Source: Escherichia coli
GTDB lineage: Bacteria; Pseudomonadota; Gammaproteobacteria; Enterobacterales; Enterobacteriaceae
Reading direction: 5' to 3' (one strand)
DNA length: 64,000 nt
NCBI RefSeq assembly: GCF_003334335.1
Contig: NZ_QOWQ01000009.1
The translations under genes were made by a program, and so were the position numbers. This document shows, one piece after another, positions 34,629 to 34,816 of the stretch. Positions within the stretch are counted from its first letter, which is position 1; every line of letters starts with the position of its first letter. A model generated the notes under the pieces. The model made no database searches. It was given only the letters and a program-made list of their open reading frames with translations, and was not told where the DNA came from.

Positions 34629-34704
34629 GCGGGAATAGCTCAGTTGGTAGAGCACGACCTTGCCAAGGTCGGGGTCGCGAGTTCGAGTCTCGTTTCCCGC
34701 TCCA
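34629..34704 (+). tRNA. tRNA-Gly (GCC), copy 1 of 2
   Basis: 76-nt GCGGGAATAGCTCAGTTGGTAGAGCACGACCTTGCCAAGGTCGGGGTCGCGAGTTCGAGTCTCGTTTCCCGCTCCA. Confidence 0.97.
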
Positions 34705-34740
34705 AAATTTGAAAAGTGCTGCAAAGCACAGACCACCCAA

Positions 34741-34816
34741 GCGGGAATAGCTCAGTTGGTAGAGCACGACCTTGCCAAGGTCGGGGTCGCGAGTTCGAGT
34801 CTCGTTTCCCGCTCCA
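34741..34816 (+). tRNA. tRNA-Gly (GCC), copy 2 of 2
   Basis: Identical 76-nt repeat 36 nt downstream of copy 1. Confidence 0.97.

Follow-up and report, generated by a model that had tools for sequence, protein, structure and literature searches.

The window we investigated, a stretch of 64,000 nucleotides from Escherichia coli (contig NZ_QOWQ01000009.1), contains a glyV-X-Y operon with two tRNA-Gly(GCC) genes in place of the three found in K-12 MG1655. The canonical operon has three tandem copies, separated by spacers of 36 and 35 nt. The window contains a copy-number variant of it in which exactly one repeat unit is absent, with the junction inside perfect homology and without a scar or foreign sequence. 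We put the chance that the array truly shrank from three units to two, through an event between its repeats, at slightly better than even (about 0.55). The two-copy state as such is not new: it is an already recorded, rare and otherwise ordinary copy-number variant of this array.

The array and its counterpart in K-12

ARAGORN reports three tRNA genes in the window, exactly two of which are tRNA-Gly(GCC) genes (Table 1). In the Rfam search each of these scores 69.1 bits against RF00005, and no further RNA family reaches its gathering score within positions 34300-35300. Both copies have the anticodon GCC, are 76 nt long and match K-12 glyV as an exact string. A sequence-only reading of the same DNA had described two identical 76-nt tRNA-Gly genes separated by a 36-nt spacer, with no third copy ahead of a datA-like region. 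ARAGORN, Rfam and the comparison of the copies bear out the first part of this description; ARAGORN and the pattern search agree with the second, as there is no further copy before the DnaA-box cluster. The same reading had given three copies for K-12, correctly, as MG1655 possesses glyV, glyX and glyY, and the flanking genes it named, orn and queG, are the annotated neighbours in matching genomes. Each of the 5,426 complete E. coli genomes in the collection contains a match to the interval formed by orn, tRNA-Gly, yjeV and queG.

The two spacers of K-12 MG1655, sp1 (36 nt, AAATTTGAAAAGTGCTGCAAAGCACAGACCACCCAA) and sp2 (35 nt, AAATTTGAAAGTGCTGTAAGGCACAGACCACCCAA), differ from one another by one indel and two substitutions. 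In the alignment of the window with K-12 the sole difference at the array is that one tRNA and sp2, together 111 bp, are missing; all aligned columns of the upstream region, the first tRNA, sp1, the last tRNA and the downstream flank are identical. At all three positions where sp1 and sp2 differ the window has the sp1 state, and its second tRNA runs directly into the downstream flank; the junction of an exchange or a collapse must therefore lie within a 93-nt tract of identity (Table 1). This tract comprises the last 15 nt of the spacer, which sp1 and sp2 share, the 76-nt tRNA, and 2 nt that the downstream flank shares with sp2. The K-12 glyV-glyX-glyY operon (tRNA-Gly3, GCC) and the array in the window are alike in their setting, with orn upstream, yjeV and queG downstream, and a position upstream of datA, and they have the same tRNA, promoter region, leader, first spacer, terminator and DnaA boxes; they differ in having three tRNA units versus two.

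Table 1. Positions of the tRNA-Gly array and of adjoining elements in the window
Feature	Position	Strand	Basis and remarks
Putative glyV-X-Y promoter	34544-34571	+	-35 TTGCAG 34544-34549, 16-nt spacer, -10 TATAAT 34566-34571
tRNA-Gly(GCC) copy 1, glyV equivalent	34629-34704	+	ARAGORN, Rfam; identical to K-12 glyV
Spacer, 36 nt	34705-34740	+	Identical to the K-12 glyV-glyX spacer (sp1)
Identity tract, 93 nt	34726-34818	+	Deduced from the window-K-12 alignment and the spacer sequences
tRNA-Gly(GCC) copy 2, glyX/glyY fusion equivalent	34741-34816	+	100% identical to copy 1
Terminator/attenuator-like hairpin and T-run	34828-34875	+	RNA fold -14.3 kcal/mol, z = -2.8; identical to K-12
datA-type DnaA-box cluster	34835-35084		Pattern search
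DnaA box (box 1)	34835-34843		1 mismatch
DnaA box	34902-34910		Perfect, TTATCCACA
DnaA box	35064-35072		1 mismatch
DnaA box	35076-35084	-	1 mismatch

The exact promoter hexamers given for glyV-X-Y are putative and were read by eye from the sequence. A scanner for the sigma-70 consensus reported no promoter upstream of the array, because the -35 element matches at only three of six positions. The putative -10 element is followed by a GC-rich discriminator, GCGCCTCCC, and the promoter region is identical to that of K-12 in the alignment. A promoter at this site, PglyV-X-Y, is known to exist and to drive read-through into datA, and the terminator/attenuator TglyV-X-Y is known to overlap DnaA box 1 of datA (Kasho et al., PMC10950094). 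In the window the hairpin 3' of the last tRNA likewise overlaps DnaA box 1, and the arrangement agrees with the position of datA downstream of glyV-X-Y that is described in the same paper; the cluster of DnaA boxes confirms the datA context of the array. Promoter, leader, terminator and the DnaA boxes of datA are all unchanged with respect to K-12.

Copy number of the array in complete genomes

For the census of the 5,426 complete E. coli genomes, the E-value threshold of each query was chosen so that nothing but an uninterrupted array of two, one or four copies would satisfy it. Two copies were found in 81 genomes (1.5%), a single copy in 15 (0.3%), and four or more copies in at least 17 (0.3%); the remainder, about 5,300 genomes or about 98%, has three. 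Two other queries were discarded. A census with a 1,101-nt query, which gave 626 genomes at 80% coverage or more, proved unusable because the search tool joins BLAST pieces, so that three-copy arrays with a 121-nt insert were counted too. A 142-nt diagnostic (sp1, tRNA and 30 nt downstream; 150 records) over-counts two-copy arrays because some three-copy arrays, those of GF43, the J53 hybrid assembly and AVS0753, have sp1 before the last tRNA. In GF43 a third spacer variant, sp3, stands ahead of sp1.

In a rank-spread sample of 59 genomes, in which array length was determined with a flank-only query, the array measured 299 nt in 45 genomes (three copies, K-12 type) and 420 nt in the other 14 (three copies with a 121-nt insert in sp1); the count of 0 two-copy arrays among the 59 shows their rarity only. 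The insert is located at the 3' end of the first spacer and occurs, going by this sample (14/59), in roughly one in four complete E. coli genomes, for example in E. coli SC516 (1042-1162 of the extracted locus) and XDL. It may resemble an ERIC/IRU element. The insert is absent from the array in the window and from the rest of the window.

Both possible two-copy products are found among the public genomes, one that has kept sp1 (248-nt span) and one that has kept a 35-nt spacer of the sp2 or sp3 type (247-nt span). The two-copy allele occurs in unrelated backgrounds, including O157:H7 Xuzhou21, ST648, ATCC 25922, an O2:H6 strain and KO11FL. Among the public two-copy alleles, such as those of Xuzhou21, KO11FL, ST648, ATCC 25922 CP009072, 23CRST014 and GF124.3, many are identical to the window over a 248-nt stretch, the array with 30 nt on either side. 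Over the 25-kb flanks every one of these genomes differs from the window, and some keep a spacer of the sp2 or sp3 type. Two assemblies are unusual in other respects: in NWU_4 a truncated and a complete tRNA copy are joined in frame, and in Rosetta2(DE3), which has a two-copy array, the upstream flank is a gene for an SDR oxidoreductase, not orn.

Contraction, assembly collapse or inheritance

Outside the array the window is very similar to MG1655, with 9 mismatches in the 30.1 kb to its left (4706-34818) and about ten differences over about 21 kb to its right. The closest genomes over positions 36000-60999 are BR1220, AH21 and VG48B2, at about 100% identity, all of which carry the three-copy array with its 36- and 35-nt spacers. 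Because these closest relatives all have three copies, three copies can be taken as ancestral for the haplotype of the window, and the two-copy state is, on sequence comparison, derived relative to them. None of the 5,426 genomes in the collection matches the window perfectly over either 25-kb flank; the highest scores are 46,132-46,139 bits, compared with the 46,168 bits that we estimate for a perfect match.

Contraction would have involved the identical 76-nt tRNA repeats, between which unequal sister-chromatid exchange or replication slippage would have removed one 111-bp unit (a tRNA and the 35-nt second spacer), with a junction somewhere in the identity tract. Unequal sister-strand exchange or replication slippage makes tandem repeats of about 100 bp unstable in E. 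coli, and Lovett and colleagues are said to have put forward a RecA-independent model for the deletion of short tandem repeats in this species. The window resembles the deletion and expansion of such short repeats in two respects: a single unit is lost exactly, inside perfectly matching sequence, and changes in both directions occur in the population. It differs in that the mechanism is proposed here from sequence alone. Contractions to one or two copies and expansions to four or more are both present among the complete genomes, as unequal exchange predicts for its reciprocal products, and the two-copy state recurs across unrelated lineages (81 genomes). The tRNA gene dosage of Pseudomonas fluorescens SBW25 reportedly also shifts through recombination-type events and not through point mutation (PMC7661048, PMC10954465). 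The events in that strain are large-scale tandem duplications that were selected after the deletion of a tRNA gene, whereas in the window a 111-bp unit was lost inside a native array, without evidence of selection.

The two-copy array might alternatively be an old inherited state of the lineage, either ancestral or imported by recombination from a two-copy lineage. A two-copy clade with the sp1 spacer does exist near the window: 23CRST014 (human faeces, Ecuador) and GF124.3 (chicken meat, Switzerland) both have the order tRNA-sp1-tRNA and have 7 derived SNPs in common in 50 kb, and the non-K-12 haplotype of these two strains is also present in the window, from 43.8 to 57 kb. However, the window carries none of the 7 SNPs of this clade, the clade carries none of the 8 SNPs private to the window, and three-copy strains possess the same right-hand haplotype. 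Common descent of the array in the window with that of the clade is therefore not supported by these sequences. An ancestral two-copy state was rejected, as about 98% of genomes, across all phylogroups, and all of the nearest relatives have three copies. We regard old inheritance as very unlikely.

Collapse during assembly deserves more weight, and we place its probability somewhat below even. According to this explanation the strain truly has three copies, and an assembler or polisher reduced the tandem repeat of 111/112 bp to two units. Hybrid graph-based assemblers must estimate the number of passes through such small loops; the main text of the Unicycler paper makes no mention of loops or tandem repeats. 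Signs of such an artefact are seen in several public assemblies of other strains, which bear on the window only indirectly. AVS0753, with three copies in the spacer order sp1-sp1, and AVS0226, with two copies, stem from a single project and a single canton and show 0 mismatches in 9,842 flanking positions; KO11FL has two copies, compared with three in both assemblies of E. coli W and in the KO11 descendant LY180; the K-12 derivatives MC1061 and OV2 were assembled with a single copy; and the hybrid assembly of J53, also a K-12 strain, has the order sp1-sp1, which is absent in MG1655. A few sequencing projects look over-represented among the reduced-copy arrays, in that strains with AVS, TUM or GF names supply at least 20 of the 81 genomes with two copies and 6 of the 15 with one; we take this as a hint and not as a test. 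That the nearest relatives of the window all have three copies is also what collapse would give. However, the spacers differ at three positions, so that a three-unit array can be resolved by reads of at least 130 nt or by any long read. Arrays with four copies occur, and collapse cannot make them. The instability of tandem repeats of about 100 bp in E. coli is, moreover, genuine and well established. The strains 23CRST014 and GF124.3, which belong to the same lineage, were sequenced in independent projects and share both the allele and the derived SNPs; heritable two-copy lineages therefore do exist.

The sequence-only reading had named recombination between the repeats and assembly collapse as the possible causes. 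An exact, scarless loss of 111 bp fits both of them, and both occur among public genomes, in the form of an allele shared by independent projects and of assemblies of the same clone or pedigree that disagree in copy number. For the window itself, a real deletion and an assembly collapse are not separable from the sequence alone; a genuine contraction from three units to two is the reading that we prefer. About 2% of the E. coli genomes labelled complete deviate from three copies at this locus, and part of this deviation looks like assembly noise. Copy-number calls for short tandem tRNA arrays are unfit as strain markers, or as input for tRNA gene counts, unless they are confirmed at the level of reads.

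Dosage, and other features of the window

If the contraction is real, its biological weight is small: one of four tRNA-Gly(GCC) genes is gone, and both the operon and datA keep all their regulatory elements. With the promoter, the 50-nt leader, sp1 and the terminator/attenuator unaltered, transcription and processing of the operon should proceed as usual. The primary transcript of the array is expected to be 111 nt shorter, and the number of tRNA-Gly(GCC) genes in the genome is expected to fall from four to three, assuming that glyW is present outside the window. MG1655 without all of glyVXY is viable, with a fitness effect that depends on the medium (Raval et al. 2023, PMC9981150). The same study found that a severe loss of tRNA gene copies carries a cost in rich media and often brings a benefit in poor ones, and that backup tRNA gene copies gave no compensation. 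Since deletion of the entire glyVXY array is viable in MG1655, the loss of a single copy should be tolerable, and its effect should be smaller than that of the full deletion and in the same direction.

That about 98% of genomes have three copies of so unstable an array is compatible with purifying selection on dosage. The loss of the unit in the window may itself have been selected for its effect on dosage, for example in nutrient-poor niches with slow growth, where the removal of redundant tRNA genes reportedly brought a benefit (PMC9981150), or it may subtly alter the read-through from PglyV-X-Y into the IHF site of datA (PMC10950094) and hence the timing of replication initiation; of all the readings considered here we find a non-neutral loss of this kind the least probable.

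At position 56,024 the divergence of the window from MG1655 rises abruptly, from about 0.03% over 4.7-56 kb to about 1.5% in the remainder (56024-64000). This position looks like a boundary in a recombination mosaic, judging from the change in divergence, and the diverged right-hand haplotype is common to the window, 23CRST014 and GF124.3. The single-base differences that distinguish the window from K-12, 23CRST014 and GF124.3 are located at positions 14346, 22472, 26488, 41090, 41628, 44546, 50563 and 56689. Most of these eight are transitions, and each could represent real divergence or a consensus error. The same applies to the T-run of an intergenic terminator near position 52203, which has eight T in the window and nine in K-12, 23CRST014 and GF124.3.

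LY180 differs from its ancestor W in having K-12-type alleles of the rsgA and queG proteins and a K-12-type sp2 around the array. This suggests that K-12 DNA may have been brought into LY180 near frd during strain engineering.

At the left end of the window a tRNA-Phe gene is located at positions 4820-4895 on the minus strand. Within window positions 1-4895, the DNA to the left of this gene is without a counterpart at the pheU locus of K-12, where yjdQ' and cadCBA are found; homology between K-12 and the window begins at position 4706. An open reading frame for a P4-type integrase (3357-4622, minus strand) directly adjoins the 3' end of the tRNA-Phe gene, and another, resembling sulfatases and phosphoethanolamine transferases with a score below the family cut-offs, occupies positions 196-1698 on the plus strand. 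The non-K-12 DNA to the left of tRNA-Phe looks like a pheU-associated genomic island.
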